From NCBI GenBank assembly GCA_035534915.1, contig DATLQZ010000074.1:6167-70166 (forward strand): a stretch of DNA of 64,000 bases, given 5' to 3'. The notes below the pieces were generated by a model. It was not told where the DNA came from, made no database searches, and was given only the letters and a program-made list of their open reading frames with translations. Position 1 is the first letter of the stretch, and the number at the start of each line of letters is the position of its first letter. Shown here piece after piece: positions 44,305 to 64,000 of the stretch. Made by a program: the position numbers and the translations under genes. This DNA comes from Candidatus Dormiibacterota bacterium. GTDB taxonomy: Bacteria; Chloroflexota; Dormibacteria; Aeolococcales; Bog-877.

Positions 44305-45070
44305 GGGGGGGCAGGAGGGCGTTCCGGCTCTGGCGGTTCGCGACCTGGTCGCTGGGTACGGTGACTTCGCGGTGGTTGATGGCATCAGCCTGGAGGTTCC
44401 CGCCGGCAAGGTGGTGGCGGTCGCTGGCCCGAATGGGGCCGGCAAGAGCACACTGCTCAAGGCGATGCTGGGCATCGCCAAGGTGATGGGGGGCCAAGTC
44501 TTCCTGGAGGGGCGGGATGTCACATCCGTTCCCCTCGAACAGCTGGCTCGACTAGGGGTGGGATACGTGCCCCAGCTCGATGACGTGTTCGACTCGCTGA
44601 AGGTGATCGAAAATCTGGAGATGGGCGGGTATCTGTGCAATCGCGCGGAACGACAGCGGCGGATAGAAAGTGTGCTCCAGGTGTTCCCTCAACTCCAGGC
44701 CAAGCTCCACCGCTACGCCGAGACCTTGAGCGGGGGCGAGCGCAAGATGACTGCAATTGCGAGAGTCCTGATGCTCGACCCGAAGGTTCTGGTTCTCGAC
44801 GAGCCAACCGCCAGCCTCACCCCTGAGCTGTCCCGAGTTGTGCTGGAAGAACAGGTTCGTCCCCTGAGTGCGATGGGGAAGTCGGTCTTGTTGGTGGAGC
44901 AGAAGGCTGTCGCAGCGCTAGCGATAGCTGACTGGGCCTACCTGTTGGTGCGTGGCCGAGTCGAGGTGTCCGCCCCGGCCGCCGAGGTGTTGAGTGACCC
45001 CCACATGCGGGAGATATTTCTGGGTCGCGCGGCGGCGGAGGTCGCCGCAAGCGGCCTCGACAGCAAATGA
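44285..45070 (+). CDS. livF: ABC transporter ATP-binding protein (LivF type)
   Basis: 261 aa with GPNGAGKST, LSGGERKMTAI and VLVLDEPTASL. It overlaps the livG end by 20 nt. Confidence 0.88.
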   Translation: MPTSSVRGGQEGVPALAVRDLVAGYGDFAVVDGISLEVPAGKVVAVAGPNGAGKSTLLKAMLGIAKVMGGQVFLEGRDVTSVPLEQLARLGVGYVPQLDDVFDSLKVIENLEMGGYLCNRAERQRRIESVLQVFPQLQAKLHRYAETLSGGERKMTAIARVLMLDPKVLVLDEPTASLTPELSRVVLEEQVRPLSAMGKSVLLVEQKAVAALAIADWAYLLVRGRVEVSAPAAEVLSDPHMREIFLGRAAAEVAASGLDSK

Positions 45071-46719: not shown

Positions 46720-47035
46720 CGCTGTTTTTGGTGACCGCAGGTAGCAGATGAGGGTCTTTTCGGCGGCTGCGACTGCTAGGTGTCTTGGAGGAGGCTTTCG
46801 GTGGCCAGGGCGTCCGTGTCGCATCCTGGCTGGTGTTGATCCCCTTCCCTTTCCGTTGGTTATGGAGGGCTAGAGAGGTGGCCATGTCAACTTCTCGCGA
46901 GGTGCGCTCGGGTCACGAAGGACCAGCGTCTTGTGGCGCGAGCCAGGTTCCATTGACCGAAGCCCTTCCCTGGTCCGGCGGGCACGGGGTCGGGCCTGTC
47001 CCCCAGGGTTCGCGGAGCGGCGAAGGACGGTACAG

Positions 47036-48061
47036 TTGAGGCCGCCGCTCGGGATCATGCTGCACACGGGTGACATGGGATACCCGGACATCGTGCGGTT
47101 CGCACGGCGGGCGGAGGACGCGGGCTATGAGCACTTCCTGCTCACCGAGGAGTCTGCGAAAGAGGCCTTCTCGCTCCTGGCCGCGCTCGCTACCGCCACC
47201 CAGAAGATCAGGCTGGGCACCGGAATTGTCAGCTTCTACACGAGGACTCCCACTTTGCTGGCCATGGCGGCACGATCCATTTGGGAGCTTTCCTCGGGCC
47301 GATTCAGCCCTCTCGGGATTGGCACCGGCGGCATTGGCTTCATGACCCGCGGCCACGGGATGACCTTGGACCGGCCGGTTGGGCGGGCGCGTGAAACGGT
47401 GGAGATCGTGCGCAGCTTGCTGACCGAGCCCAGAACCTCCTACCAGGGTAAGTGGTTTCGAGTAGAAGACTTTCATCTGCGCGAGGGTGCTCTCCCGGAC
47501 GGTGCCAGGATCCCGATTTGGCTCGCCGCGTTGGGTCCGCAGATGGCCACCATGAGCGGAAGGGTCGCGGACGGGATGATCAGCAACTGGCTCATTCCCG
47601 AGTCGCTGGCGGAGTACCGCACTTTGATCCAGGCTGGGGCCACAATTTCCGGGCGCAGTCAGAGTGACTTCCAGATTTCGAGTCTGACCATGGTCTGCGT
47701 CGACCCTAGTGATGAAGAGGCCGTGCGCGCCGCCAGACGGGGGGTGGCCTTCTATTGTGCCAGCACCCACTACCACCACATAGCAGATCTGGCCGGGTTG
47801 GGCGAGCAGGCCCGACGGGTGCAGTCCGTATGGGAGACCCGAGATTTCGAGGCGGCGGCTGCCATGGTGAGCGATGAGATGCTGGCCCGCTTCACGCTGG
47901 CCGGTTCGGACCGCGAGAATGAGGCCCGCCTAAAATGGATGATCTCCGAGGGAGTGCTGCCGATCATCTATCCACTCCCGCGCCGGTCGCGGGTGGTTGA
48001 GGACCACTTCACCGTCCTCGAGCGAGCGGCCGCCTGGAGTGGCCTGGGTGGTAAAGACTGA
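47036..48061 (+). CDS. LLM-class (luciferase-like) flavin/F420-dependent oxidoreductase
   Basis: LRPPLGIMLHTGDMGYPDIVRFARRAEDAGYEHFLLTEE, IRLGTGIVSFYTRTP and WLAALGPQM are typical of luciferase-like monooxygenase-fold proteins. TTG 47036 or ATG 47057 is the likely start; the track start 46931 adds a non-homologous extension. Confidence 0.78.
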   Translation: MRPPLGIMLHTGDMGYPDIVRFARRAEDAGYEHFLLTEESAKEAFSLLAALATATQKIRLGTGIVSFYTRTPTLLAMAARSIWELSSGRFSPLGIGTGGIGFMTRGHGMTLDRPVGRARETVEIVRSLLTEPRTSYQGKWFRVEDFHLREGALPDGARIPIWLAALGPQMATMSGRVADGMISNWLIPESLAEYRTLIQAGATISGRSQSDFQISSLTMVCVDPSDEEAVRAARRGVAFYCASTHYHHIADLAGLGEQARRVQSVWETRDFEAAAAMVSDEMLARFTLAGSDRENEARLKWMISEGVLPIIYPLPRRSRVVEDHFTVLERAAAWSGLGGKD

Positions 48062-48063
48062 GG

Positions 48064-49725
48064 ATGGAAGGGGTGACCTCGTTTCCAAGGGCCCTAGCGG
48101 AGCGATATCGACTCCGCGGGTATTGGGAGGACCGTGCACTTGGCGAGGTCTTTCAAGAGTGTTTCCAGAAGTTCGGGGATTCGCTAGCTGTGATCGACGG
48201 GGACGAACGATGGAGCTTCGCAGAGCTGGGCCAGGGTGTGGAGCGATTGGCGCTGAACCTTCTGGATCTGGGGATTCAGCCGCTCGATCGAGTGGTGCTC
48301 CAACTCCCCAACCGCGTGGAGTTCATTCTCTTGTACTTTGCGCTGCAACGCTTGGGGGCGATTCCACTGCTGGCCCTGCCAGGGCACAGAGAGTACGAGA
48401 TTGGTCACTACCTGGATTTCGTGGAGGCAGTGGGGTACGCCGCGCCTCCGAAGTACGGCGATTTCGATTGCCTGGGACTGGCGGCACGTCTCCAGGGGCA
48501 CAACCCCAATCTCCGTCTGATACTGGTCGCGGGGCCGGCCCCTGATCGGCCCGGGCATGTGGGCATCCGCGACCTGCTGCAACGCGCTCCCAAGGCCACG
48601 GTTGACCAGCTGCGCGGACTCTCAATTGACCCGGATGAACCGTGTGTATTCCAGCTGTCCGGGGGGACGACCGGTATCCCCAAAGTGATCCCACGCAGCC
48701 ACAATGACTACCTCTACAACAGCCGTCTGATCGCTTCGGTCAATGACATCAGGGCAGGGGATCGCTTGCTCGTTACGGCCCCGATTGGCCACAACTTTCC
48801 CCTTGCTTCTCCAGGTATACAGGGCTTCTTCCTGCACGGCGGGACGGTGGTGATGTGCCCCAGCCCTCGGTCGGGAGTGGTGCTACCGCTCATCGAACGT
48901 GAAAGCGTGACTCACCTGGAAATCGTGCCGGCGATGGTTCTGTCCTGGCTCCACGACGGCCTCATCCACGATCATCACCTGGAGTCTGTTCGCGTGATCA
49001 ACAGCGGGGGCCAGAAGTTCCAGCGTGATACCAAGATCCGGACCGAGGCCGCTTTCGTCGGCGCCAAGGTACAGGAGGTCTTCGGAATGGCTGAGGGCCT
49101 TCTGATGATCACCCGACTGGACGATCCCCGGGAGGTCAGGCTGGAGACGGCGGGCCGACCAATCTGCCCTGACGATGAGGTCATGTTGGTGGGCGAGGAT
49201 GGGCTCGAGGTCCGCGGGGGGGAGATCGGAGAGCTCCTCTGTCGCGGGCCGTACACCCTGCGTGGTTACTACCGTGCTCCCGAGGCGAACCGACGCGCGT
49301 TCACCGAGGACGGCTTCTACTGCTCGGGCGACCTGCTGCGACTGCACTCCTCAGGCAACTACGTGGTGGAGGGGCGTAAGAAGGATCTGGTGAATCGCGG
49401 GGGGGAGAAGATCAGCGCTGAAGAGGTAGAGGAGATGCTTCTCGGTCATCCCCTGGTAGCCAACGTCGCCTGCGTGCCGATGCCCGATCCAATCCTCGGG
49501 GAGCGCATGTGTGCCTTCGTCCAACCGATCCACGGTGCCACACCTGCGTTGAGTCAGCTGACCGCCATGTTGACGGAGCGCGGGTTGGCGCGCTTCAAAC
49601 ATCCGGAAAAGTTGGTGCTCGTCGCGGAGCTCCCGCTATCCCCGTTTGGCAAAGTACAGAAAAGCGTTCTGAGCCGGCGGGCCGCCGAGCTGGTCGACAC
49701 TACCAAGGAGGGTTACCCAAATTGA
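48064..49725 (+). CDS. aryl-acid adenylating enzyme, (2,3-dihydroxybenzoate)-AMP ligase DhbE/EntE-like, copy 1
   Basis: 553 aa; ATG lies 2 nt after the LLM stop. It has an EntE-like N-terminus (LAERYRLRGYWEDRALGEVF), ANL motifs LSGGTTGIPKVIPRSHNDYLYN, GEIGELLCRGPYTLRGYY and VNRGGEKISAEEVE, and the A10 motif PLSPFGKVQK. Confidence 0.85.
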   Translation: MEGVTSFPRALAERYRLRGYWEDRALGEVFQECFQKFGDSLAVIDGDERWSFAELGQGVERLALNLLDLGIQPLDRVVLQLPNRVEFILLYFALQRLGAIPLLALPGHREYEIGHYLDFVEAVGYAAPPKYGDFDCLGLAARLQGHNPNLRLILVAGPAPDRPGHVGIRDLLQRAPKATVDQLRGLSIDPDEPCVFQLSGGTTGIPKVIPRSHNDYLYNSRLIASVNDIRAGDRLLVTAPIGHNFPLASPGIQGFFLHGGTVVMCPSPRSGVVLPLIERESVTHLEIVPAMVLSWLHDGLIHDHHLESVRVINSGGQKFQRDTKIRTEAAFVGAKVQEVFGMAEGLLMITRLDDPREVRLETAGRPICPDDEVMLVGEDGLEVRGGEIGELLCRGPYTLRGYYRAPEANRRAFTEDGFYCSGDLLRLHSSGNYVVEGRKKDLVNRGGEKISAEEVEEMLLGHPLVANVACVPMPDPILGERMCAFVQPIHGATPALSQLTAMLTERGLARFKHPEKLVLVAELPLSPFGKVQKSVLSRRAAELVDTTKEGYPN

Positions 49726-50717
49726 TCATCGATGCCTACTCCCATGTCTGCCCGGAGCGTCTCATCGCGGCGATCAACCGGGATTACCCCAGCGCCGAGG
49801 CGGCCGCGCTCGACAGTCGACCTTATCTTCGGGACGCCGCCAAGCGTGTCCGATTCATGGATGAGGTGGGCATTGACGTACAGGTCCTGGTACTGGTCCG
49901 TCCTCCAATGTGGCTAGGCATGCCGCGCGAGGTCATGTACCGGATGATGCGTGAGGCCCATCTCGGGATCGCAGCCATGGTCGCCGAGTACCCGGACCGC
50001 TTCGTGGGTACGGCGGTGGCGCCGGCCTGCGACGAGCGGATCTTGACCGAACTTCGATTCGCCTGGGATGAATTGGGTTTGGTGGGGGCGGAGATCTTCT
50101 CCAATGTTGAGGGACAGCCGCTGGACGCCCAAGAGATGTGGCCCCTATATGCAGAGGTTGAGCAGCGCGGTGTGCCACTGTGGATACATCCCCAGCACAC
50201 CTCCTACCTGTACCCTTGGATCAAGGAGTCCCTTTTGGATCGCAGCCTGGGGTGGCCGTTCGACACCTCGCTAGCGATGATGCGGCTGGTCTATGGCGGT
50301 GTCATGGAGCGCTATCCAGACCTGAAGATCGTCACCCATCACTTGGGGGGCATGATCCCTTACTTTGGTGCTCGGCTGGACGCCTTTGACCATGAGATCG
50401 CTGAGTATCGCGCCAAGCAGCTTACCGGCGCCGCCGCCGTGGAGCTCTCCGCCCCCGTGGGTGATTATCTGCGACGTTTCTACAACGATACTGCCATCAG
50501 TTACAGCCCGGCTACCTTGCGCTGCGGGCTGGACTACTTCGGACCGCTTCACGTGATGTTCGGTACCGACTTTCCCATGGGATCGGCGGACGGGGAGACA
50601 TGGACCCGAGACATCTTGCGGGCCATTGGAGACACCGCGATGTCAGCGGAACACCGCGCTCTCTTGCTCGGAGGCAACGTCCAGCGGCTGCTGGGCTTGG
50701 ATCGCGCCGGGAGCTGA
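49722..50717 (+). CDS. amidohydrolase_2 (ACMSD / aromatic-acid decarboxylase-like) family protein, copy 1
   Basis: TTG 49722 overlaps the ligase stop (TTGA) and AAGGAGG lies at 49705-49711. 331 aa with LIIDAYSHVCP at the N-terminus, WIHPQH, GWPFDTSLAMMRLVYGGVMERYPDLKIVTHHLGG and MFGTDFP. Confidence 0.8.
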   Translation: MIIDAYSHVCPERLIAAINRDYPSAEAAALDSRPYLRDAAKRVRFMDEVGIDVQVLVLVRPPMWLGMPREVMYRMMREAHLGIAAMVAEYPDRFVGTAVAPACDERILTELRFAWDELGLVGAEIFSNVEGQPLDAQEMWPLYAEVEQRGVPLWIHPQHTSYLYPWIKESLLDRSLGWPFDTSLAMMRLVYGGVMERYPDLKIVTHHLGGMIPYFGARLDAFDHEIAEYRAKQLTGAAAVELSAPVGDYLRRFYNDTAISYSPATLRCGLDYFGPLHVMFGTDFPMGSADGETWTRDILRAIGDTAMSAEHRALLLGGNVQRLLGLDRAGS

Positions 50718-50857
50718 AACGGGTTTGCCCGCGCACAACCTTGGAGTTTGTTAAAAATGGTACTGTCGGGCGTAGGGGGGTGCGGCCGAGCGGCTCGGGT
50801 GCGAACAGCACCAGCCGGCGGCGACAGATCGGAGCCGGAAACGGGGAGTCTTAGGCC

Positions 50858-51712
50858 ATGACCAGAGATCAGCCCAACGTCGCCGAGGAGTTGGTGCGCC
50901 TCGGGTTCTCCACCTATGAGGCACGCACCTACGTCGGCCTGCTAGTAGCCGGCGAGAGTACCGGGTACCGGATCTCCAATGACACTGGAGTCCCGCAGCC
51001 AAAGGTTTACGAGACCCTGCGTCGGCTCGCGGAGAGGGGGGCTGCGACGCTGGTCAACCAGCGTCCCGCCCGTTACGCAGCCGTGCCCCCGGAACAACTG
51101 CTCGGTCGTCTACAAGGGGACTTCAGCAAGCGGTTGGAGCGGGCGCGCACCGGTTTTCGGGAACTGCCCTCCGGAGTCGGCGGCACGACCGGGCTCACGG
51201 TTAACCGTCTGGCCAGCATCGACGCCGCTTTGGAGCACACCCGCCGAGCCATCGACAAATCCGCCACTCGGGTGTACCTGCACGCCCGCCGAGACGAGCT
51301 CACGCCGCTTGCGGGAGCGGTGAAGTCGGCCGCTGCCCGCGGGGTCGAGTTCGTCATGGTCCACTTCGGCGCTCTGCCTTTCCCAGCTCCGCCGGGGCGG
51401 GTGGTCAGGCATGCCAGCACCGATGGCACCCTCTACGCCTCACGCGGAGTTCGTCATCTGGCGGCCGTGGTCGATTCGCGGTGGGGGCTGTGGGTGCTCT
51501 CTCGGGAGGGGCAGGCGGACGAGGGATTCCATGCCGACAGCCCACTCATGGCTAGCTTGGTCAAGACGTACATCCGTCACGACCTGTTCGTCCAGCGTAT
51601 CTACTCTGACTTTTCGACCGAGCTGGAGGAGGCGTACGGTCCCGGCCTGCTCAGCCTCACCGATTTTTCCGCGGAAGACGGGCTGGAGGAGGTTGCGGGC
51701 CAGGTCGGCTAG
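50858..51712 (+). CDS. TrmB-family transcriptional regulator
   Basis: 284 aa with the winged-HTH LGFSTYEARTYVGLLVAGESTGYRISNDTGVPQPKVYETLRRLAERGAA and a TrmB-type C-terminal domain. Confidence 0.8.
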   Translation: MTRDQPNVAEELVRLGFSTYEARTYVGLLVAGESTGYRISNDTGVPQPKVYETLRRLAERGAATLVNQRPARYAAVPPEQLLGRLQGDFSKRLERARTGFRELPSGVGGTTGLTVNRLASIDAALEHTRRAIDKSATRVYLHARRDELTPLAGAVKSAAARGVEFVMVHFGALPFPAPPGRVVRHASTDGTLYASRGVRHLAAVVDSRWGLWVLSREGQADEGFHADSPLMASLVKTYIRHDLFVQRIYSDFSTELEEAYGPGLLSLTDFSAEDGLEEVAGQVG

Positions 51713-51821
51713 CCATCGTCCTGGTAGCCCACCCACTACGGTAGGTATCTTTAGACCGCGGTGTGCCTACGGCCGGGTCTCAAACCGTCGCGAACGTTTT
51801 CTGAAGGGAGCAAGGATATCT

Positions 51822-53393
51822 ATGACGCTTGATGGAGTGGTCCCGTTTCCAGCTGAATTCCAGCAGCGCTACCGGGAACGAGGATATTGGGAGGACCTGA
51901 CCATGGATCAGGTCTTTCGGGCCGCCTTCGCTCGCCACGCCGACCGAACCGCCATTATTTTTCAAGACCACGAGGTCACATATTCGCAGCTGCAAGAGCA
52001 CGCTGACCGGCTGGCGGGGTGGCTCTGGCAGGAGGGGGTCAGGCCCCTTGATCGGGTGGTGGTGCACCTGCCCAACCGTCCGGACTTCATCTACCTCCAT
52101 TTCGCTCTTCAGCGGCTGGGAGCCGTCCCGATCATGGCATTGGCCGCGCACCGTCGCTACGAGATCGACCACTACCTCCGGCTGGCGGAGGCAACTGCTT
52201 ATTTCGGCACAGATCCGGAGCTAGCCGCGGAGGTGCAACTCACGAATCCGCAGCTGCGGCTCGTGGTTACCGGGGATGAGCTATCTCGGCCCTCAGCTGC
52301 CCCGGAAGCCCCGGCTGTGGCAATCGATCCCACCGATCCTTGCCTGCTCCTACTGTCAGGCGGCACCACCGGCGTCCCCAAGCTCATCCCCCGCACTCAC
52401 AACGACTACATCTACAACACGAAGGCGGCTTCCGCTGCCCAGGACATCACTCCTGAGACGGTGCAGTTGTGTGTCCTGCCGCTGGCTCACAATATGCCGC
52501 TGGCTTGCCCTGGGATCCAGGGGGTGTTTCTTGCAGGTGGCAAGGTGATTCTTCGCGGCAGCACCAGACCTGAGGACGTGCTCCCGGCGATCGAGCGCCA
52601 CCGCGCGACGCATGTGGCTGGGGTTCCGGCGCTCTATATCCGATGGCTGAGCGACCCGCTCAGTGCCGCGTGCGACCTGAGCTCGGTTCAGCTTCTGCAA
52701 TCTGGCGGCCAACGGCTTCAGCCCGAAGTGAGGCGGCGGATGGCGCGCGCCTTTCCCAACGCCTTCGTCCAAGAGAACTTCGGGATGAGTGAAGGGACGC
52801 TGTTCTTCACCAGCCGAGACGATCCGGAGGAGGTGCGCCTGGAGACGGTTGGCGTTCCGGTGTGCCCGGACGACGAGGTTCGACTGACCCAGGAAGACGG
52901 GAGGGATGTGCTCGACGGGGAGGTTGGCGAGCTCACTGTCCGGGGTCCCTACACCCTGCGCGGGTACTACCGAGCCGCGGACTACAACCATCGGGTGTTC
53001 ACCCCAGACGGCTTCTACAGGTCCGGCGACCTGATGCGACGTCACCCCTCGGGGGCTTATCTGGTGGAGGGCAGGATTAAGGACCTGGTCAATCGCGGCG
53101 GCGAAAAGATCAGCGCCGAGGAGGTGGAGAATCTCATTCTCACCCACCATAAGGTCCGCGATGTAGCCTGCGTGCCTCTTCCCGACCCGGTCCTGGGAGA
53201 GAGGATGTGCGCCTGTGTCATCGCCAAAGACGGCGAGACGGTGACGTTGCCGGAGTTAACAGCACACCTGCTGGACCTAGGTTTGGCGAAGTTCAAGCTC
53301 CCGGAGCGCGTTGAGTTGGTGGAGTCCTTTCCGCTCTCGCCCTTTGGGAAGGTATCCAAGAAGGCGCTCGCAGATCGGTTCGCAGCCGCGTGA
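51822..53393 (+). CDS. aryl-acid adenylating enzyme, DhbE/EntE-like, copy 2
   Basis: ATG 51822 follows GAAGGGAG. 523 aa with FQQRYRERGYWEDLTMDQVF, LSGGTTGVPKLIPRTHNDYIYN, GEVGELTVRGPYTLRGYY, VNRGGEKISAEEVE and PLSPFGKVSK. By eye it matches copy 1 at roughly half of its positions. The track start 51411 is an unsupported extension. Confidence 0.85.
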   Translation: MTLDGVVPFPAEFQQRYRERGYWEDLTMDQVFRAAFARHADRTAIIFQDHEVTYSQLQEHADRLAGWLWQEGVRPLDRVVVHLPNRPDFIYLHFALQRLGAVPIMALAAHRRYEIDHYLRLAEATAYFGTDPELAAEVQLTNPQLRLVVTGDELSRPSAAPEAPAVAIDPTDPCLLLLSGGTTGVPKLIPRTHNDYIYNTKAASAAQDITPETVQLCVLPLAHNMPLACPGIQGVFLAGGKVILRGSTRPEDVLPAIERHRATHVAGVPALYIRWLSDPLSAACDLSSVQLLQSGGQRLQPEVRRRMARAFPNAFVQENFGMSEGTLFFTSRDDPEEVRLETVGVPVCPDDEVRLTQEDGRDVLDGEVGELTVRGPYTLRGYYRAADYNHRVFTPDGFYRSGDLMRRHPSGAYLVEGRIKDLVNRGGEKISAEEVENLILTHHKVRDVACVPLPDPVLGERMCACVIAKDGETVTLPELTAHLLDLGLAKFKLPERVELVESFPLSPFGKVSKKALADRFAAA

Positions 53394-53398
53394 ACAGA

Positions 53399-53441
53399 GG
53401 AGGCAGCCGCTCTGGTCTATTTGACCCGAGCGGCTGCCTCC
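53399..53441. terminator. perfect 14-bp hairpin between convergent genes (bidirectional terminator-like)
   Basis: GGAGGCAGCCGCTC (53399-53412), a 15-nt loop, then GAGCGGCTGCCTCC (53428-53441). It sits between the ligase-2 stop (53393) and the amidohydrolase-2 stop (53444). Confidence 0.55.
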
Positions 53442-53443
53442 CG

Positions 53444-54274
53444 CTAGTCCTCGTCAGTGCCGAACAGCAGCCGGTGAGAGTTGGCGTACAGGATCTTGTG
53501 CTTCACGTCCTCGGGCAGCTCAATTGCCTCGAAGTCCTTGAGCCACCGCGCCGCCGTCATTACCGGGGCATCGGTGCCAAAGAGCACTCGGTCCGGGAAT
53601 ATCGACTTCGCGTACTGCCACACGGTGTCCGGGATGTATTTTGGCGACCATCCGGATAGTTCGAGGTAACAGTTGCGGCGGATCCAGACCACGGAGATTG
53701 CCTGGTTCACCCAGGGAAAGCCGAAGTGCGAAAGAATGATCTTGAGATCGGGAAAATCGAGAGCGACCTCGTCGAGTAGGGTCGGGTCGCCATACTGCAT
53801 CCGGCCTCCGGACTGGTTGTGTCCAGTGTGCACCAATACCGGAATCCCGAGCTCCTGGGCCTTCGCCCAGAGCGGGTAGTGGGCCCGATCATTGGGATAG
53901 AAGTGCTGGGTCGGGGGGTGCAGCTTGAGGCCACTCATGCCCAGGTCGCGAATGGCGTGCTCCAACTCGATGACCGCCATCTCGTGCTTGTTGGGGTCGA
54001 CACTGGCGAATCCGACAAATCGGTCGGGCGCCTGTGCCACCAGCTTGGCGACCACCTCGTTGGGCACCTTCCACCCGTGAGTTGTCTCACAGTCAAACGC
54101 CAAGAGTACAGACTTCTCGACCTCGGTCTGGTCCATCTCCCGCACCATGTCTTCCACGGTGATGGGATTGCCACCGAAATTGAAGGTTTTGCGGGCGTGA
54201 CCCCAGAACCAATCTGGGGTCACGGCCAGGACCTCCTCGGTGTACGGGTGAACGTGAATGTCGATTGACTTCAA
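53444..54274 (-). CDS. amidohydrolase_2 (ACMSD-like) family protein, copy 2
   Basis: 276 aa with a canonical N-terminal MKSIDIHVHP (HxH), GLKLHP, VLVHTGH, ILSHFGFPW and LFGTDAP. Confidence 0.85.
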   Translation of the reverse strand: MKSIDIHVHPYTEEVLAVTPDWFWGHARKTFNFGGNPITVEDMVREMDQTEVEKSVLLAFDCETTHGWKVPNEVVAKLVAQAPDRFVGFASVDPNKHEMAVIELEHAIRDLGMSGLKLHPPTQHFYPNDRAHYPLWAKAQELGIPVLVHTGHNQSGGRMQYGDPTLLDEVALDFPDLKIILSHFGFPWVNQAISVVWIRRNCYLELSGWSPKYIPDTVWQYAKSIFPDRVLFGTDAPVMTAARWLKDFEAIELPEDVKHKILYANSHRLLFGTDED

Positions 54275-54323
54275 TGTCTGCTCCCCAAATTCATCTTCCG
54301 CAGTCCTCCGACTCTCCGTTGTC

Positions 54324-55088
54324 CTACGTGGTGGCGCTGTAGCCGCCGTCGATCACGACGACCGACCCTGTGACCATGTGGTTCGATGTGATCAACGAGA
54401 CCACGACCTCGGACACGTCCTCGGCCGTCACCACCCGGCCGAGCGGCGTGTGACTTGAGCGCCGGTCCATGAGGCGCTGGTAGTTGTCGCCCAGCGTCTG
54501 CTCCATCCACTCTCCCAGGACCCATCCTGGTGCCACCGCGTTGACTCGGACCTGGGGGGCGAGAGCCCGTGCCAGGGTCCTGGTGAGGTTGGCGACCGCT
54601 GCCTTGGTGGCCGCGTACGGGAGTGGCTGGGCGCTGGGTCGAAGTCCGGCGATGCTCGACATGTTGACAACGCTCGCGTCATCGGACAGCCGCAACAGTG
54701 GGACGGCGGCTCGAGTCACCTGAAACAGCCCGCGGACGTTCACCGCGAAGACCCGATCCCACGCCTCCAGATCCATCGATTCAAGGTCCTCGGGGGCGGT
54801 CTCGACGGTCATGCCCGCGTTGTTAACCAGCGCGTCCAGCCGGCCGAAGGTATGAGCGCAGGTCTGCAGCATCGCCCTGACCGCGGATTCGTCACTCACA
54901 TCTGCCTGCAGGGGCATCGCCTGAGCACCAAAGCTACGGACCAGCGCTGCGGTCTCCTCCGCCTGCTCCGCGCTGCGGCTGAAGTTGACCGCTACGTCAT
55001 AGCCGCGCTGGGCGAGGGCGACCGCCACACTCCTGCCCATCCCGCGAGAGGCTCCGGTTACCAAAGCCGCTCTGCGAATCTCGCTCAA
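54324..55088 (-). CDS. SDR-family oxidoreductase (FabG-like)
   Basis: 254 aa with the Rossmann motif VTGASRGMG, NNAG, and the catalytic S...YAATK. The TTG start overlaps the stop of the upstream OsmC-like gene (TTGA). Confidence 0.9.
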   Translation of the reverse strand: MSEIRRAALVTGASRGMGRSVAVALAQRGYDVAVNFSRSAEQAEETAALVRSFGAQAMPLQADVSDESAVRAMLQTCAHTFGRLDALVNNAGMTVETAPEDLESMDLEAWDRVFAVNVRGLFQVTRAAVPLLRLSDDASVVNMSSIAGLRPSAQPLPYAATKAAVANLTRTLARALAPQVRVNAVAPGWVLGEWMEQTLGDNYQRLMDRRSSHTPLGRVVTAEDVSEVVVSLITSNHMVTGSVVVIDGGYSATT

Positions 55089-55639
55089 CTCAAATCCTCC
55101 GGGGACGAGATATCCAACTCCGATCCATTGAGGTCGACGGCCATGGTCGTGGCCACCGGGTGGCGGAACGTCTGACTGGCGTGGCAGGCTCTTTCGGCAT
55201 GTTGGCAGAGGCGGGCCACGGCCTCCGGAGGCGCCGGGCTCTTCACGCGGAGCAGAAACTCAACGTGCTGAAAGGCGCCCGGGGGACCCCCGAGGTCGTA
55301 CTTGTCCGCGAGGCTAAAGGTGGCCCGCACATCGGCCTCGGCTTCCCAGATCGTCACATCGTAAAGAGGCGAAAACTTCGCCAATTGGGTGAGCATTCAA
55401 AAGGCCGCTCCGGCCAGCAGATACTGCAGCGGACGGGGCGCGGAGCCCCCGCCACCTCCCGCAACCGGCTCGTCCGATTCCAGCCGAAAGGTGCCGACCC
55501 GACCCTCCATATGTAGGTCGCGATCGATGCGAGCGACCGCCCGCTGGGTGATCAGTGGCTGCTCCGCTGTCTCGGCCCTGGTGGCCTCGTAAACCTGCCG
55601 CATCCGTTCCAGGTTGACCCTCGGCTCGGGGTCGCTCAT
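55085..55639 (-). CDS. OsmC/Ohr-family peroxidase-like protein interrupted by one in-frame TGA at the first catalytic Cys position (candidate selenoprotein, or pseudogene)
   Basis: Track ORFs 55397..55666 and 55085..55396 are in the same frame, separated only by TGA (55399-55397). The joined product reads ...SAPRPLQYLLAGAAF[TGA]MLTQLAKF...HAERACHASQTF, which fits the OsmC fold and both Cys motifs. ATG 55639 overlaps the upstream gene's stop (ATGA); GTG 55666 is an alternative start. Confidence 0.6.
55368..55382 (-). promoter_or_regulatory. SECIS-like hairpin 14 nt downstream of the in-frame UGA
   Basis: The minus-strand RNA reads UGA-AUGCUCACCCAAUU-GGCGAA-GUU-UUCGCC. This is a 6-bp stem with G-U at the start of the apical loop, about 20 nt after the UGA. 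It is short and was not tested for covariation. Confidence 0.3.
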
Positions 55640-57978
55640 ATCGACGGTCCTCCCATTAGGCGCCACAGCTTCTCGGGTGAGTACGGGGGGTTGGCGTGGC
55701 GCACGCCGAGTTCCCGGAGAGCATCAAACACGGCATTCGCGATCGCCGCAGGTACCACGATGCAGCCTGATTCCGCCACCCCTTTGGTCCCCAGCGGGCT
55801 GAGAGGCGAGCGGGTCGGTCGGAACTCCGTGATCATCTCGATGTCCACATCGGGCATGGTGGGGATGGCGTAGCTCATGAAGCCCTCGGTCAGCGGCTGA
55901 CCGTTGCCATCGTGGGACACCTCCTCGAAGATCGCGGCCGCGACTCCTTGAATGCTGGAACCGATCACCTGTCCTTCCGCCAAGAGCGGGTTGATGATTG
56001 GGCCGGCGTCGTCGACTGTCACCAGCCGTTCCACCCGCACAAAGCCGGTCTCCCGATCTATCTCGACAGTGGCAACGGAGGCGCTGGAGCCAAACGCCAG
56101 CCGGGGAAGGGTGAATCGGCCATCTCCCCGGAGTTCTGGCAAGTCGGCGTTCGGCCATTCTGCAGCTGCCCGAGCGATCTCGGCTAGGGTGAGGAGACGT
56201 TCGCCGGCCGGTCCGACAATCGCTCCCTGATCCCAACGGAGCTGCTCTTCGGGGATGTCCAGCATGTGGGCGGCCCAGATCTGACAACGGCGCTGCAGCT
56301 CCTCGATTGCCAGCAGGATCGCCCCCCCGCCGACAGTCACAGAGCGGCTGGCGAAGGTTCCCATGCCAAGAGGAACTTCAGCGGAGTCCCCACTGTGAAC
56401 TTCGATGTCGTCGGTATCGAGCCCCAGGGCATCGGCCGCGATTTGAGAGAAGGTTGTCGCGTGGCCCTGCCCGTGGTCGCTGGATCCAGGCAGCAGCAGG
56501 ACCCGCCCATCGGGTTGTAGCTTGGCGGCGGCCGTCTCCCAGTTGCCGTTGCCGCTCGACTCGACGGCGACGGCAACACCAATTCCCCGCAGCTTCCCCT
56601 GAGATCTGTCGAGCGCCAGGTCGGCGCGGGCCCGTGCGTAGTCCGCGAGCTCCAACGCCCTGTCTAAAAGTCCTGGGTAGTCTCCCGAGTCATACTCCGT
56701 GCCGGTGGCGGCAAGGTACGGGAGTGCTTCTGGCGGCACCAGATTCAACTTCCGTATCGCCACCGGGTCCATGCCCAGTTCGGCCGCGGCGAGGTCTGCT
56801 AGCCGCTCGATAACGAAGGTCGCCTCGGGCCGACCGGCGCCCCGATAGGGGCCGGTGGGGACCTTGTTCGTGGCCGCTCCAACGACTTCCACGTCGGCCG
56901 CTGAGATGTCGTAGGGTCCGGTCGCCAGACTGCTCGAGGTTGATCCCACCACCGCGGTATGGCCCAGTAGATAGGCGCCGGCATCAAAGATCATTCGTAC
57001 TCGGAGCGCTTTGAATCGTCCCGTGGCATCCACGGCAAGCTCGGCGTCCGCGTCCATGCCGCGGCCCTGGTAGGAGGCGACGAATGCTTCCGAGCGGGTC
57101 TCGACCCACTTGACAGGCCGTCCGGTCTGTATCGCCGTCAAGGCGGCGACCACATACTCGGGAGCCAAGCCGCCCTTGCTGCCGAAGGCGCCGCCGACGT
57201 CTGGTACGACAACCCGGATGCGGTCCGCCGGACGGCCGAGGACGTACGCCATCTGAAGGCGAGGTCGGTGCGGATCTTGGGATGAACACCAGAGCGTCAA
57301 GAGATCGTCGTCTGCTGAGTACTTCGCGACACAGCCCCGCGGTTCGATTGGAGATGCCTGCAGTCGGGGAATCGAGAAATCGGCTCGGATCACCCTGGCT
57401 GCCCGTTGCAGTTCCCCGCTCACGTCTCCTGAAGCATGTCGGTAGGAGAAGAGCACGTTGTCAGGGGCAGCCGGCTGGACGGGCGGGCCGCCGTCCAGGG
57501 CTGCCCTCGGTGCGCCCACCGAGGGCAGCGCATCCAGCTCGGGCCAGACGAGGTCGGCGGCATCGGCAGCCTGGCTCCTGGTCTCTGCCAGCACCGCCGC
57601 AACGGCCTCGCCGACGAACCGGACCTTCTCTGCGGCCAGAATCGGCATTGGAACGTCCGCCACCTTGAAGCCATCTGGGAGTTGGGTCGCGCGAAGGGGC
57701 AGGGGTAGCAGACTCTTCGGCAGGTCTGCCGCCGTTATGACCTGAACGACGCCGGGTGAGGCCTGGGCCGCTGCGAGGTTCAGGCCTCGAATGCTGGCGT
57801 GGGGAACCTGGCTCCTAACGAAGGCGAGATGTAGGCAATCCGCAAACTCAAGATCGTCCAAGTAGGCACCCTGCCCGAGCACCAAGCGGGCATCCTCCCG
57901 TCGGATCTGGGGCCGTCCGATCCATGGCTCAGTCAAAGAACTCCCACTCCAGTCTGCCCTGCCCTGGCTCCCCCTCAT
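55636..57978 (-). CDS. xanthine dehydrogenase / aldehyde oxidase / CoxL-family molybdopterin-binding subunit
   Basis: 780 aa with IGRPQIRREDARLVLGQGAYLDD (a/b hammerhead), GGAFGSKG and GPYRGAGRPEATFVIERL. No FeS (CoxS) or FAD (CoxM) subunit gene is adjacent. Confidence 0.9.
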   Translation of the reverse strand: MRGSQGRADWSGSSLTEPWIGRPQIRREDARLVLGQGAYLDDLEFADCLHLAFVRSQVPHASIRGLNLAAAQASPGVVQVITAADLPKSLLPLPLRATQLPDGFKVADVPMPILAAEKVRFVGEAVAAVLAETRSQAADAADLVWPELDALPSVGAPRAALDGGPPVQPAAPDNVLFSYRHASGDVSGELQRAARVIRADFSIPRLQASPIEPRGCVAKYSADDDLLTLWCSSQDPHRPRLQMAYVLGRPADRIRVVVPDVGGAFGSKGGLAPEYVVAALTAIQTGRPVKWVETRSEAFVASYQGRGMDADAELAVDATGRFKALRVRMIFDAGAYLLGHTAVVGSTSSSLATGPYDISAADVEVVGAATNKVPTGPYRGAGRPEATFVIERLADLAAAELGMDPVAIRKLNLVPPEALPYLAATGTEYDSGDYPGLLDRALELADYARARADLALDRSQGKLRGIGVAVAVESSGNGNWETAAAKLQPDGRVLLLPGSSDHGQGHATTFSQIAADALGLDTDDIEVHSGDSAEVPLGMGTFASRSVTVGGGAILLAIEELQRRCQIWAAHMLDIPEEQLRWDQGAIVGPAGERLLTLAEIARAAAEWPNADLPELRGDGRFTLPRLAFGSSASVATVEIDRETGFVRVERLVTVDDAGPIINPLLAEGQVIGSSIQGVAAAIFEEVSHDGNGQPLTEGFMSYAIPTMPDVDIEMITEFRPTRSPLSPLGTKGVAESGCIVVPAAIANAVFDALRELGVRHANPPYSPEKLWRLMGGPSI

Positions 57979-58881: not shown

Positions 58882-60234
58882 TCAGCTCTGAATGGGTAGT
58901 CCAGCTTCTTTGGCGTTGTCGAAGTCGTCGTCGATGAGAACGACCGAGTGACCCGCTCGGTCGAGCAGGCTGGCTGCGACGCTGGCGCGATAGCCCACCC
59001 CGCAGTGAACCCAGAGCTCTTGCCGCGGAATCTCACGCATCCGTCCGGGAAGCTCCTGAATCGGGACGTTCCTTGACCCTGGAATGTGGCCGGATCGCCA
59101 TTCATCCGATTGGCGTACGTCCAGTACGACGGCCGCCTCGGGCAGCCCCTGTGCAACTCGGGCAAAGTCAGTCACCGGATAACCGCGCACCGGTAGCTGG
59201 GCGGAGTGCCCCGCGAATCCGACGGTGCTCGCCTCAAGTCGGTCCAGTCCGATCCGGGACAGGGCCCGGCGGGCGGCGCGGAAGTCGTCAAGACCGTCGG
59301 TCAGCAAGGTGAGCGAGGTGTCAAACGGCGACAACCAACCGGCGTAGGTCGAGAAGCTGCTGGATAGCTCCATCCCGACCGTACCCTGAAGGTGGGCGGC
59401 GGCGAATTGCCGTCGTGGCCTGGTGTCGATGACCCAACTGCCTCCTTCCAGCTTGACACGAAGCGCCTCGGAGTCCAGCTCGGAGATCTCCGTGATCTCG
59501 GCAAAGGCGGTGGGACCGAGCCGGTTGAGTGGAGCCATGTGGGAGTAATAGGAGGGGTACGGACCCAGTCCGGCGATGATCGATGCCACGAAGGCCGTCT
59601 CGTCATCCGTCGTCGCCGCCACGTTCTGTGCCCGCTCGCTGGCGATATTTCCAGCCCCGGCGCTGGAGGTGCCAGAGGATGCGCAGAAGCTTCCAAAGCC
59701 GTGCGTGGGTAACACCTGGGCGTCAGGTGGGACTTCCGCCATGAGCCGACGAGCCGAGCGATACTGATCTCGAGTGAGGCTCTCGGTGAGTTCCGACGAA
59801 ATTAGATCGGTGCGTCCCACGGTGCCGTAGAGGAGCGATCCCCCGGTCAGCACCGCGACCGCTGTGCCCGCTTCCAGAACCGCGTATGAGAGGTGGTTAG
59901 GGGTGTGCCCGGGAGTGTGCAGTGCTCGGACCGTCAAGCTGCCCGACTCAAAGGTATCGCCCTCATTGACGGCGCGACGGGCAAATTCGACCGAGTCGGC
60001 CGCTGCCACGCAATAATCGGCGCCCACCACCTTAGCCAGCGCCAGTCCGCCAGTCACGTAGTCATTGTGAATGTGGGTCTCGAACACATGGGTCACCCGT
60101 ATCCCGGAGCTCGTGATGCGACTCAGGAGCTTGTCAATGTCTCTTTGGGCGTCGACCACGAAGCCGAAGCTGCCGTCGTGAACGAGGTAGCTTCGGTCGC
60201 CGAGTTCAGGGGTTTCCACGACCACGACTTGCAC
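58882..60234 (-). CDS. MBL-fold metallohydrolase (persulfide-dioxygenase-like) fused to two rhodanese domains
   Basis: 450 aa. The N-terminal metallo-beta-lactamase fold has VFETHIHNDYVTG and HTPGHTPNH. The first rhodanese-like domain has no Cys. The C-terminal rhodanese domain has the active-site loop HCGVGYRAS. Confidence 0.88.
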   Translation of the reverse strand: MQVVVVETPELGDRSYLVHDGSFGFVVDAQRDIDKLLSRITSSGIRVTHVFETHIHNDYVTGGLALAKVVGADYCVAAADSVEFARRAVNEGDTFESGSLTVRALHTPGHTPNHLSYAVLEAGTAVAVLTGGSLLYGTVGRTDLISSELTESLTRDQYRSARRLMAEVPPDAQVLPTHGFGSFCASSGTSSAGAGNIASERAQNVAATTDDETAFVASIIAGLGPYPSYYSHMAPLNRLGPTAFAEITEISELDSEALRVKLEGGSWVIDTRPRRQFAAAHLQGTVGMELSSSFSTYAGWLSPFDTSLTLLTDGLDDFRAARRALSRIGLDRLEASTVGFAGHSAQLPVRGYPVTDFARVAQGLPEAAVVLDVRQSDEWRSGHIPGSRNVPIQELPGRMREIPRQELWVHCGVGYRASVAASLLDRAGHSVVLIDDDFDNAKEAGLPIQS

Positions 60235-61382: not shown

Positions 61383-62927
61383 ATGAGATACGGGTTCGCG
61401 ATAGATCAGGGGACGTGCATAGGGTGCCACGCGTGCACGGTCGCCTGCAAGACCGAGCATAAGATCCCGGTCGGGCAGTTCCGGACGTGGGTGAAATATG
61501 TGGAGAAGGGTGCTTTCCCCTCCACGCGCCGGGAGTTCGCGGTGATGCGCTGCAATCACTGCACCGACGCCCCCTGCGTGAGGATCTGTCCCACCCAGGC
61601 GCTCTTCAAGCGTCCCGACGGGATCGTCGACTTCGACAGTGACCGCTGCATCGGCTGCAAGAGCTGCCTGCAGGCCTGCCCGTACGACGCCATCTACATA
61701 GACGCGGACACCCACACTGCGGCCAAGTGCAACTTCTGCGCTCACAGGGTCGATCAGGGGATGGAGCCAGCGTGCGTGGTGGTGTGCCCCACCCATTCGA
61801 TATGGGTTGGTGACCTGGATGACCCCAAGAGCGGGATCAGCCGCCTGATCGCGGAGAAGCCGACGGCGGTGCGGTCGCCGGAGCAGAACACACATCCCAA
61901 CGTCTTCTACCTGGGCGCTGACCGAGTAGCCCTGGACCCGCTGGAGGCTCCGGTGGCCGACACCTACATCTTCTCGAAGCCCGACGAACAGCGGCTGCAG
62001 TACGCGCAGGGACAGCCGGAGCGCCCGGCGGAGGCGGCACGGACGACGCTCAACACCTCGCACCCGAGACCGTGGGGGTGGAGGGTGTCCGGCTATCTGT
62101 GGACCAAGTCGGTGGCGACCGGGGCGTTGTTGGTGGCCGCTCTGTCTCTCATCGCCAATGGCCGCTTGGGGGCAGAGGTCCTGCTGGCGGCGCCCGCCAT
62201 CGCTCTACTCATGTCCATCGTGACCGGGGTGCTCCTGATCTGGGACCTGAAGCGCCCGGAGCGGTTCTTATACATCTTCCTAAAGGCGAACCCGACCTCT
62301 TGGTTGGTGTGGGGGACGGTTGCCTTCAGCCTGTACTCCGCCGTCAGCGGGCTTTGGCTCCTTTTGGGGTTGCTCGGAACCGCTGCGGTCATTGGGCATT
62401 CGGCCCTTCAGCTCAGCTTTGAGATCCTGCGCTGGGCGGTCTTGCCGGTGGCGGCGGTGACCGCAGGTTACTCGGCTTTGCTATTCAATCAGGCGGAGGG
62501 GCGGGACCTGTGGCAGTCCCCCATCTTCTTCTGGCACCTCCTCGACCAGGCGCTGCTGGCTGGATCCGGTGCGCTGCTGCTGGTGGGACTCCTCACCTCT
62601 CCGGTCGCCGCTGAGACCAGATTCCTGCTGGTGATCTTGGTGTGTGCCGCGGTCGGTCACCTGCTCCTGCTGACCCTGGAGCACGTCGGCCACCACCCGA
62701 GCCGTCAGGCCGCCATGGCGGCCAAGCTCATGATCCTAGGGCCCTACGCCAAGGAGTTCTGGTTGGGCGCAGTCGCTGTTCCGGTACTGGTCATCGCTCT
62801 CGCCAGTGGCTCCCTCCCGGGAGCCGTGCTGGCGGTCGGAGCGGTGGCTGGAGCGATCGTGCAACCGGGGCTGCTGGCGTATGAAACCGCCTTTGTGCGA
62901 GCTGGTCAGGATGTCCCGCTCTCCTAG
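61383..62927 (+). CDS. four-cluster 4Fe-4S ferredoxin subunit (PsrB/DmsB-like) fused to a polytopic NrfD/PsrC-like membrane domain
   Basis: 514 aa. The N-terminal ~200 aa carry four Cys groups (CIGCHACTVAC, CNHCTDAPCVRICP, CIGCKSCLQACP, CNFCAHRV...CVVVCP). The C-terminal ~300 aa contain about 8 hydrophobic helices. Confidence 0.85.
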   Translation: MRYGFAIDQGTCIGCHACTVACKTEHKIPVGQFRTWVKYVEKGAFPSTRREFAVMRCNHCTDAPCVRICPTQALFKRPDGIVDFDSDRCIGCKSCLQACPYDAIYIDADTHTAAKCNFCAHRVDQGMEPACVVVCPTHSIWVGDLDDPKSGISRLIAEKPTAVRSPEQNTHPNVFYLGADRVALDPLEAPVADTYIFSKPDEQRLQYAQGQPERPAEAARTTLNTSHPRPWGWRVSGYLWTKSVATGALLVAALSLIANGRLGAEVLLAAPAIALLMSIVTGVLLIWDLKRPERFLYIFLKANPTSWLVWGTVAFSLYSAVSGLWLLLGLLGTAAVIGHSALQLSFEILRWAVLPVAAVTAGYSALLFNQAEGRDLWQSPIFFWHLLDQALLAGSGALLLVGLLTSPVAAETRFLLVILVCAAVGHLLLLTLEHVGHHPSRQAAMAAKLMILGPYAKEFWLGAVAVPVLVIALASGSLPGAVLAVGAVAGAIVQPGLLAYETAFVRAGQDVPLS

Positions 62928-64000
62928 GGAGGAAGGCGCCAGCGCGCCCGGGCCAGACGCCCAGCGTTGGGGTTCGGTGGAACTGCCCGGGCAGCGCAGC
63001 CACGAGCACTTGAGCAACTACCCACCGGTCGAGAGCTGGGACGACCACATGGAGTTGGACGCACAGGCCCACCCCCGCCGCGTCGAGCACCACTACACCC
63101 TGGTCCCCACCACTTGCTTCAACTGTGAGAGCGGGTGTGGGTTGCTGGCGTACGTGGACCAGGAGGATCTCTCCATCCGCAAGCTGGAGGGCAACCCTGC
63201 CCACCCAGGCTCTAGGGGCCGAAATTGCGCCAAAGGGCCGGCCACCGTGAATCAATTGGATGACCCTGAACGGATCCTTCACCCGCAGCGCCGGGTGGGA
63301 CCAAGGGGCGGTGGCCAGTGGGAGGATGTCAGTTGGGACCAGGCGCTGGACGACATCGCCCAGCGCATCCGCACCGCGATCCAGGAAGATCGACGGCGAG
63401 AGGTCATGTACCACGTTGGCCGACCCGGCGAGGACGGGTTCGCTGAGCGGTTCCTGATGGCGTGGGGGGTGGACGGCCACAACAGCCACACCAACATCTG
63501 CTCGGCGGGGGCCAGATTTGGGATGACTTTGTGGGCAGGGTACGATCGGCCCTCTCCTGACTACGCCAACGCCAAGGTGATCCTCCTGCTGTCAAGTCAC
63601 CTGGAGACCGGCCACTACTTCAATCCCCACGCCCAGAGGATCATGGAGGCAAGGCAGAACGGCGCGCGCCTGGCGGTCGTCGACCCGAGGTTGTCCAACA
63701 CGGCGGCCAAGGCGGACCTGTGGGTCTCTCCGTGGCCCGGAAGCGAGGCGGCGATTCTGCTTGCGATCGCTTCCTATCTCCTGCGCACTGGCAGGGTGGA
63801 TCGGGAGTTCGTCAGGCGATGGGTGAACTGGCAGACCTACCTGCAGGAGCTGCATCCGGCGGCACCGGCGACCTTCGAGAGCTTCCTTGAGCAGTTGGAG
63901 TCGGACTACTCCCAGTACACCTTTGAGTTCGCAGCCGAAGAGGCGCAGATCCCTGTGGAGGAGGTCGAGAGGCTGGCGGAGCTGGTGGCCAACTCGGACC
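62911..64000 (+). CDS. molybdopterin (bis-MGD) oxidoreductase catalytic subunit, Psr/Phs/Soe-like, 3' end outside window
   Basis: Frame 1 is open from ATG 62911 to the window end; the ORF is not in the track because no stop is present. It has the FS0 motif TTCFNCESGCG...NCAKG, then MYHVGRPGEDG, HNSHTNICSAGARFG and ARLAVVDPRLSNTAAKADLWVSPWPGSE. No twin-arginine signal is seen in the first 60 aa. Confidence 0.87.
   Translation, partial: MSRSPREEGASAPGPDAQRWGSVELPGQRSHEHLSNYPPVESWDDHMELDAQAHPRRVEHHYTLVPTTCFNCESGCGLLAYVDQEDLSIRKLEGNPAHPGSRGRNCAKGPATVNQLDDPERILHPQRRVGPRGGGQWEDVSWDQALDDIAQRIRTAIQEDRRREVMYHVGRPGEDGFAERFLMAWGVDGHNSHTNICSAGARFGMTLWAGYDRPSPDYANAKVILLLSSHLETGHYFNPHAQRIMEARQNGARLAVVDPRLSNTAAKADLWVSPWPGSEAAILLAIASYLLRTGRVDREFVRRWVNWQTYLQELHPAAPATFESFLEQLESDYSQYTFEFAAEEAQIPVEEVERLAELVANSD

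Follow-up and report, generated by a model that had tools for sequence, protein, structure and literature searches.

A predicted OsmC-related selenoprotein gene with a minimal SECIS-like hairpin in a Candidatus Dormiibacterota contig

Introduction

Is a TGA that interrupts an otherwise open bacterial gene a stop, an error or a codon for selenocysteine (Sec)? This question is raised by a gene for an OsmC-family protein on the minus strand of a 64,000-nucleotide stretch of a Candidatus Dormiibacterota bacterium assembly (contig DATLQZ010000074.1; the whole stretch analysed is called the window below). A first-pass annotation of the window joined two adjacent open reading frames (ORFs) into one frame broken by a single TGA, placed this TGA on the first catalytic cysteine of OsmC, noticed a hairpin resembling a bacterial Sec insertion sequence (SECIS) behind it, and proposed a selenoprotein. 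The observation is confirmed in full, and its interpretation as a selenoprotein is supported by sequence comparison. We consider it very probable that the in-frame TGA is a Sec codon accompanied by its SECIS. This prediction rests on the conserved pairing of TGA with Cys at one column, on a hairpin that is both conserved and under constraint, on frames that are intact and on membership in a curated family.

The gene and its reading frame

The elements of the gene are as follows.

55085..55639, minus strand: predicted coding sequence of the OsmC-related selenoprotein, 184 codons and a stop, with the TGA at codon 81 read through
55649..55654, minus strand: Shine-Dalgarno-like GGGAGG, with a 9-nt spacer to the ATG at 55639-55637
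55397..55399, minus strand: in-frame TGA, predicted Sec codon (U81), in the motif U-M-L-T (UxxT)
55368..55382, minus strand: SECIS-like hairpin GGCGAA-GUU-UUCGCC, with a 6-bp stem and a 3-nt loop beginning with G-U
55184..55186, minus strand: TGC codon of C152 (in AERACHASQ), predicted resolving cysteine, aligned with the second Cys of 3CJE and Cys124 of Ohr 1N2F
55085..55087, minus strand: true stop TGA, overlapping the TTG start (55088-55086) of the next gene, which encodes a short-chain dehydrogenase/reductase (SDR)

As the first-pass annotation had described, the frame between the ATG at 55639-55637 and the stop at 55087-55085 is broken solely by the TGA at 55399-55397. The two 4-nt overlaps that it reported were also seen: in ATGA the start codon shares letters with the stop of the XDH-like ORF upstream, and in TTGA the final TGA does so with the TTG start of the SDR gene. 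Residues 53-88 of the joined protein read LESDEPVAGGGGGSAPRPLQYLLAGAAF-U-MLTQLAK. The distance of 12 residues that had been given between a conserved Pro and the Sec needs correction, as U81 lies 11 residues past P70 and 13 past P68. TGA is the terminator of 34 of the 42 confident ORFs in the window, in agreement with the earlier statement that it is the ordinary stop here, and this excludes a reassigned genetic code. Furthermore, the TGA and identical flanks are found in independent JGI, ENA and NCBI assemblies of the same sequence (L077-L079). A MAG with the exact sequence is GCA_054637535.1 (JBTSRI01).

Protein family and fold

The joined protein matches the Pfam OsmC domain PF02566 over residues 63-165, a region that spans the TGA (E 2.9e-12; 47.3 bits against a cut-off of 27.5). 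It also matches the NCBIfam model NF041052, 'OsmC-related (seleno)protein', with 137.8 bits against a cut-off of 95 (E 2.5e-40); the match covers model positions 2-144 of 144 and residues 30-172. We detected no difference from this family (OsmC_like_Se), of which the protein is a plain member. Among solved structures, the OsmC-like protein 3CJE is closest in sequence (E 1.2e-9) and aligns to residues 50-159. An AlphaFold model had a pLDDT of 75.6, and its best Foldseek matches were 3CJE, 1LQL, 6MJN, 2ONF and 1QWI. The OsmC fold, together with the PF02566 score above the gathering score, places the protein in the OsmC/Ohr superfamily.

In this superfamily U81 and C152 occupy the positions of the peroxidatic and resolving cysteines (Cys60 and Cys124 of 1N2F; both Cys of 3CJE). 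C152 is conserved in the homologue alignment, and the second catalytic motif AERACHASQ is intact, as had been noted. The alignment with E. coli OsmC given in the first-pass annotation fared unevenly: hhalign recovered the second motif weakly (E 0.21) and did not recover the first. R40 aligns with Arg18 of Ohr but is K or E in relatives, and L71 stands at the position of Glu50, which leaves the protein outside the Ohr subfamily. Compared with the two-cysteine hydroperoxide reductases (Pseudomonas aeruginosa Ohr 1N2F and E. coli OsmC 1QWI), the fold is shared and U81/C152 correspond to the peroxidatic and resolving Cys, whereas Sec is predicted here in place of the peroxidatic Cys, similarity to Ohr is weak (E 0.01-0.02), and the predicted model is extended at its N-terminus by a helix and a strand (about 40 residues).

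OsmC-like selenoproteins carrying UxxT were found in Sargasso Sea data in 2005 and are still listed in reviews of 2022 and 2026 (PMC1088965, PMC9312934, PMC13188914). The first-pass annotation was right that such proteins are known from computational surveys. Published examples include AACY01145085, MBR72571.1 and MCS5647933.1. The OsmC-like selenoproteins of Zhang, Fomenko and Gladyshev 2005 (COG1765/YhfA), to which we liken ours by their published description, are alike in the OsmC domain, the single Sec, UxxT, the small G-containing loop and the existence of Cys homologues. They differ in that they were three marine sequences (Sargasso Sea), whereas the relatives found here come mostly from metagenome-assembled genomes (MAGs) labelled Dormibacterota, Chloroflexota/Ktedonobacterales and Actinomycetes.

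The TGA column in related loci

We collected 156 related loci, 76 from a scan of one genome per GTDB species and 80 further loci from a scan of JGI metagenomes. The codon at the Sec column is TGA in 74 of the 76 genome loci and TGC in the other two. One TGA-bearing relative, L010, lies on the closed chromosome OY969934.1. In the metagenome loci it is TGA in 61, TGC in 17 and TGT in one, and the motif was not found in one. TGA therefore stands at this column in 135 of 156 loci, and all other loci with the motif have Cys; the ratio of Sec forms to Cys forms is about 6:1 (about 88% Sec). The column is also that of the first catalytic Cys of 3CJE and of Cys60 of Ohr 1N2F in the alignment. Hence the Cys/Sec pairs for which the first-pass annotation had proposed a search do exist, in 2 genome and 18 metagenome Cys loci and in these two solved proteins. 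Cys at the TGA column in non-TGA homologues is a classic Sec signature (PMC13188914).

Both halves of the gene are maintained. In about 66 of the 74 TGA genome loci the frames are open for at least 78 codons upstream and 94-106 codons downstream of the TGA. Codon positions 1 and 2 are conserved and position 3 is free on both sides of the TGA in the 65 intact genome genes, and the T of the UxxT motif (T84) is invariant in 65/65.

By submitter label, the genome loci belong to Dormibacterota (29), Chloroflexota, many of them Ktedonobacterales (26), Actinomycetes-type bacteria (10), and Bacillota, Eisenbacteria, Myxococcaceae, unclassified and others (11). Not all of these labels are plausible, and errors of binning are the probable reason. 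Close relatives of the high-GC operon of the window, with 73-77% protein identity and the same synteny, lie in L007 (DATLUG01, 'Candidatus Micrarchaeia archaeon') and L002 (DATKSV01, 'Nanopelagicaceae'). These contigs were probably mis-binned in MAGs labelled as an archaeon and a freshwater actinobacterium.

The SECIS-like hairpin

Fourteen nucleotides (AUGCUCACCCAAUU) separate the TGA from the 5' arm GGCGAA (55382-55377), which is followed by the loop GUU (55376-55374) and the 3' arm UUCGCC (55373-55368). The loop thus begins 20 nt after the UGA. The published bacterial SECIS (bSECIS) model has a loop of 3-9 nt, a stem of 4-16 bp, a G in the first two loop positions, a distance of 16-37 nt from the UGA and a minimum free energy of at most -7.5 (PMC13188914). 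With its 3-nt GUU loop, 6 bp, 20 nt and -7.7 kcal/mol for the 45-nt context, the hairpin lies within this model, so the earlier statement that its spacing and loop are SECIS-compatible is borne out; the A-U-containing stem of the window passes the energy limit only marginally (-7.7 against <= -7.5), and the version with C-G pairs folds at -10.7 kcal/mol. Like the bacterial SECIS consensus (bSECISearch; prototype E. coli fdhF), it lies inside the coding sequence right after the UGA and has G then U in a small apical loop. It differs from the consensus in its small size, close to the minimum that the model allows (loop of 3 nt, stem of 6 bp), and in being nearly sequence-invariant across phyla, with two stem versions only.

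The hairpin is conserved in orthologues, with compensatory changes and frozen synonymous sites, which answers another check proposed in the first-pass annotation. In an alignment of 75 sequences, 99.5% of the cells at the six stem pairs are paired. Two of these pairs, those closest to the loop, are A-U/A-U in 22-23 sequences and C-G/G-C in 51, and this switch tracks a peptide change from K-F-S to R-F-A. RNAalifold recovers the identical helix; it detected no lower stem or bulge that would extend the SECIS. Codons +5, +6, +7 and +9 all end in G in 65/65 intact genes (zero entropy at the third position), while nearby four-fold sites in invariant Gly, Pro, Ala and Val codons have a third-position entropy of 1.5-2.0 bits. 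On comparison of sequences, these frozen synonymous sites in more than 100 otherwise saturated genes are the strongest single argument for the predicted Sec codon.

After removal of redundancy, the hairpins of 119 Sec genes and 17 Cys genes were compared. All six pairs are formed in 116 Sec genes and five pairs in the other 3, and the loop is GUU in 119/119. Among the Cys genes, 11 have all six pairs and 6 have a degraded stem; their loop is CUU in 16 and UUU in one. The hairpin is thus conserved beyond the needs of the protein sequence and relaxed in the Cys forms. We found no further copy of the GGCGNNGUUNNCGCC hairpin in the window or in the related-locus sequence searched. One MAG, JBAUTF01, carries two TGA paralogues, L012 and L042, one with an AA..UU stem and the other with a CG..CG stem. 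If this bin is clean, the same decoding machinery must take both versions of the hairpin.

Alternative explanations

The TGA might be a disabling mutation in a pseudogene, or a sequencing or assembly error. A few related loci (L061, L072-L075) do have extra frame disruptions, and three Logan contigs break exactly at the Sec codon. This explanation is nevertheless effectively refuted by the comparative data, and we give it practically no credence: the same TGA occurs in 135 loci of several phyla and in three independent assemblies, both halves of the gene are under purifying selection, and the Logan breaks are accounted for by a 35-nt stretch in common with a co-occurring relative. A truly split gene would yield an 80-aa peptide and, after restart at the adjacent ATG, a 103-aa peptide with the OsmC fold but without the catalytic residue 81. 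The window has an ATG directly after the TGA and a weak GGAG 11 nt upstream, public gene callers give exactly these 80-aa and 103-aa products, and many 103-aa database entries begin at the same Met. However, codon +1 is Leu (CTG/CTC/CTA/CTT) in 57/65 intact genome genes and in 58/61 metagenome TGA genes. Only about 1 gene in 12 has ATG after the TGA, the others having Leu codons, which removes stop and restart as a general explanation. It would also leave unexplained the constant position of the break, on the column of the catalytic Cys, and the presence behind it of a hairpin with a G-U loop and frozen synonymous sites; moreover, the OsmC domain is continuous across the TGA. Hence a split gene is extremely unlikely.

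It is also conceivable that a residue other than Sec is inserted at the UGA, by near-cognate Trp or Cys read-through, by a suppressor or allo-tRNA, or by a SelB-dependent Cys-tRNA that mimics tRNA-Sec. Such decoding would fit with the Sec machinery not having been found in the window or related flanks, and unusual tRNA-Sec-like and UGA-suppressor tRNAs have been described in Chloroflexi, Actinobacteria, Acidobacteria and deltaproteobacteria (PMC5389517). In addition, a JGI translation has Trp at this codon (P0001-P0003). That 'W', however, is an artefact of gene calling: the codon in the DNA is TGA, and the call turns another TGA into W as well. General suppression would be harmful where TGA is the dominant true stop, the hairpin bears a SelB-type signature (a G-U loop at 20 nt), the curated family NF041052 is defined as a selenoprotein family, and non-TGA homologues have Cys at the same column. 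We regard read-through as another amino acid as very unlikely.

Several points weigh against selenocysteine. Searches of the window and of about 1.6 Mb of related flanks gave no tRNA-Sec, selA, selB or selD, and the literature that we found on the OsmC-like selenoprotein family is all computational, with none experimental on selenium incorporation. The window hairpin is no more stable than shuffled sequences (45-nt context, z = -0.68), and its significance therefore comes from the comparative data only. Since the K-type stem and the Cys forms each make up one clade in a neighbour-joining ordering, the covariation and the association of TGA with the loop G are probably each roughly a single evolutionary event. 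Part of the stem is also imposed by the conserved peptide A-K/R-F-S/A-P, and this part persists in most Cys forms. As to chemistry, the position of the Ohr catalytic Glu50 is L71, which makes peroxidase chemistry an analogy only; because this Glu is not conserved, the protein is best described as an OsmC-superfamily redox protein, not Ohr proper.

Search for selenocysteine machinery

The search for tRNA-Sec was made with ARAGORN and Rfam in the window and with ARAGORN across the related loci, and neither gave a hit. In tblastn, E. coli SelA, SelB and SelD were the queries (that for SelA is identical to PDB 8UZW); they had no match in the window or related loci except a TypA/BipA GTPase in L038. 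The 10 kb past the right end of the window contain TyrRS, YebC, RuvCAB, QueA, Tgt and SecDF and no Sec-machinery genes. In the protein databases, a SelA profile search was saturated by Enterobacteria, and an exhaustive search of representatives gave 4284 SelA clusters that bore no names. Look-ups of clusters gave Gemmatimonadota, Deltaproteobacteria and Tectomicrobia where they gave a name. P0211, the candidate with the highest GC, proved Myxococcota-like. These searches therefore linked no SelA to a genome of Dormibacterota or Chloroflexota. A scan of the window and all flanks for other TGA-interrupted coding frames returned the OsmC-related family alone. The Sec trait has been recorded in some Chloroflexi and Actinobacteria, with an unusual 8/4 tRNA-Sec (PMC5389517). 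We found no literature pairing Dormibacter* with selenocysteine.

Predicted decoding and chemistry

If the UGA is a Sec codon, 55639-55085 would encode one 184-residue OsmC-fold protein in which codon 81 is decoded as Sec, and the 15-nt hairpin 14 nt past the UGA would be a minimal bacterial SECIS. SelB carrying Sec-tRNA(Sec) would bind the G-U apical loop and deliver Sec to the ribosome paused at the UGA, and translation would run on to the real stop at 55087-55085. In the protein, U81 would stand in place of the peroxidatic Cys and C152 in place of the resolving Cys of OsmC/Ohr. The selenolate of U81 may attack a hydroperoxide or similar oxidant, after which a Se-S bond would form between U81 and C152 and be re-reduced by a thiol donor. 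We infer the SelB dependence, the selenium insertion, the peroxidase chemistry and the reductant. By analogy with the two-cysteine enzymes, selenolate-based hydroperoxide reduction resolved by C152 would be the most likely chemistry.

Annotation and significance

The gene is reported as 80-aa and 103-aa ORFs in JGI, ENA and NCBI-derived gene calls, and the 103-aa 'proteins' in databases are C-terminal halves of OsmC-related selenoprotein genes. The same mis-annotation touches well over 100 relatives. Reading the gene as predicted would restore a complete redox enzyme with Sec at the catalytic position. Trp stands at the site in three JGI proteins (P0001-P0003), and the codon in their DNA is TGA. 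In L083:702-1253 (P0001; also P0002 and P0003), the JGI call puts Trp at the Sec TGA and again at another TGA close to the C-terminus; the TGA=Trp code applied to this contig gives a wrong active-site residue and a wrong C-terminus.

A Sec codon implies that Sec machinery is used by the host, which is probably a Dormibacterota soil bacterium. It is well supported that this is a real selenoprotein of an already known kind and a routine member of the curated family NF041052. Since OsmC-like selenoproteins and NF041052 were already known, the novelty is lowered, and neither a new mechanism nor a new protein family is revealed. The modestly new points are descriptive. Sec forms predominate over Cys forms, the relatives are concentrated in MAGs that bear Dormibacterota, Chloroflexota or Actinomycetes labels, the SECIS is very small and nearly invariant, and public gene calls mis-annotate these genes systematically. 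For SECIS prediction the family also offers a very clean set of natural test cases, with a 15-nt element, two compensatory stem versions, and a loop G in all Sec genes and in no Cys genes. A broader idea, which we hold to be improbable, is that this Sec-dominant family could be a principal selenoprotein of Dormibacterota, soil Chloroflexota and Actinomycetes, spreading with its near-invariant 15-nt SECIS, whose loop G separates Sec from Cys genes. If this is true, the OsmC-related family, rather than FdhA or SelD, could maintain the Sec-decoding trait in these phyla.

Operon and neighbourhood

The neighbouring genes of the same-strand cluster are as follows.

55636..57978, minus strand: XDH/CoxL-family molybdopterin-binding subunit gene, upstream (the JGI call has 749 aa and starts at 57885)
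54324..55088, minus strand: SDR gene, downstream in the same operon (from the ORF and comparison)
53444..54274, minus strand: Amidohydrolase_2 (PF04909) gene, last of the same-strand cluster (from the ORF and comparison)

The arrangement of overlapping genes predicts that the selenoprotein gene is translationally coupled to the XDH-like molybdoenzyme gene and the SDR gene in this lineage. The GGAGG...ATGA junction is also present in the relatives L001, L004, L006, L007 and L015, and the synteny XDH-OsmC-SDR-amidohydrolase is kept only in the closest relatives. Among the related loci, no neighbour gene is common to the whole OsmC-related family. Long upstream open frames in L015 and L007 looked like XDH-OsmC fusions; these were rejected as stop-poor out-of-frame reading, and the ATGA junction is intact in both.

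The XDH/CoxL-family large subunit (55636-57978, minus strand) lies without adjacent genes for a small Fe-S or a medium FAD subunit. Its best NCBIfam matches, glyceraldehyde dehydrogenase alpha and CO dehydrogenase large subunit, are all below the cut-offs.

The Logan contigs L080, L081 and L082 come from separate runs. Each matches the window at 100% identity and ends exactly at the A of the Sec TGA (55397). The likely cause is a branch in the de Bruijn graph at the 35-nt TTTTGAATGCTCACCCAATTGGCGAAGTTTTCGCC, which is common to a co-occurring relative (L002, L085, L086, sister samples). A structural variant behind these ends was rejected because of the 100% identity.

Further along, the window at about 45000-54300 (L077 11123-20312) encodes two DHB-AMP-ligase-like adenylating enzymes, two Amidohydro_2 proteins, a luciferase-like monooxygenase, a TPP-dependent enzyme and a TrmB-type regulator. 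This cluster resembles a catabolic island for aromatic or carboxylic acids, and it adjoins the selenoprotein operon. About 1 kb upstream of the XDH-like gene, 58882-60234 (minus strand) encodes a 450-aa protein in which a metallo-beta-lactamase fold is fused to a C-terminal rhodanese domain; it resembles persulfide dioxygenase/sulfurtransferase fusions and is below all NCBIfam cut-offs. On the plus strand, 61383-62927 encodes a 514-aa fusion of a 4Fe-4S ferredoxin module and an NrfD-type membrane subunit. It is followed at 62911-64000 (plus strand, running off the window end) by a 964-aa molybdopterin oxidoreductase (Molybdop_Fe4S4, Molybdopterin, Molydop_binding), which is a single ORF in the source contig. 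The pair at 61383-64000 looks like a Psr/Nrf or ACIII-like module.

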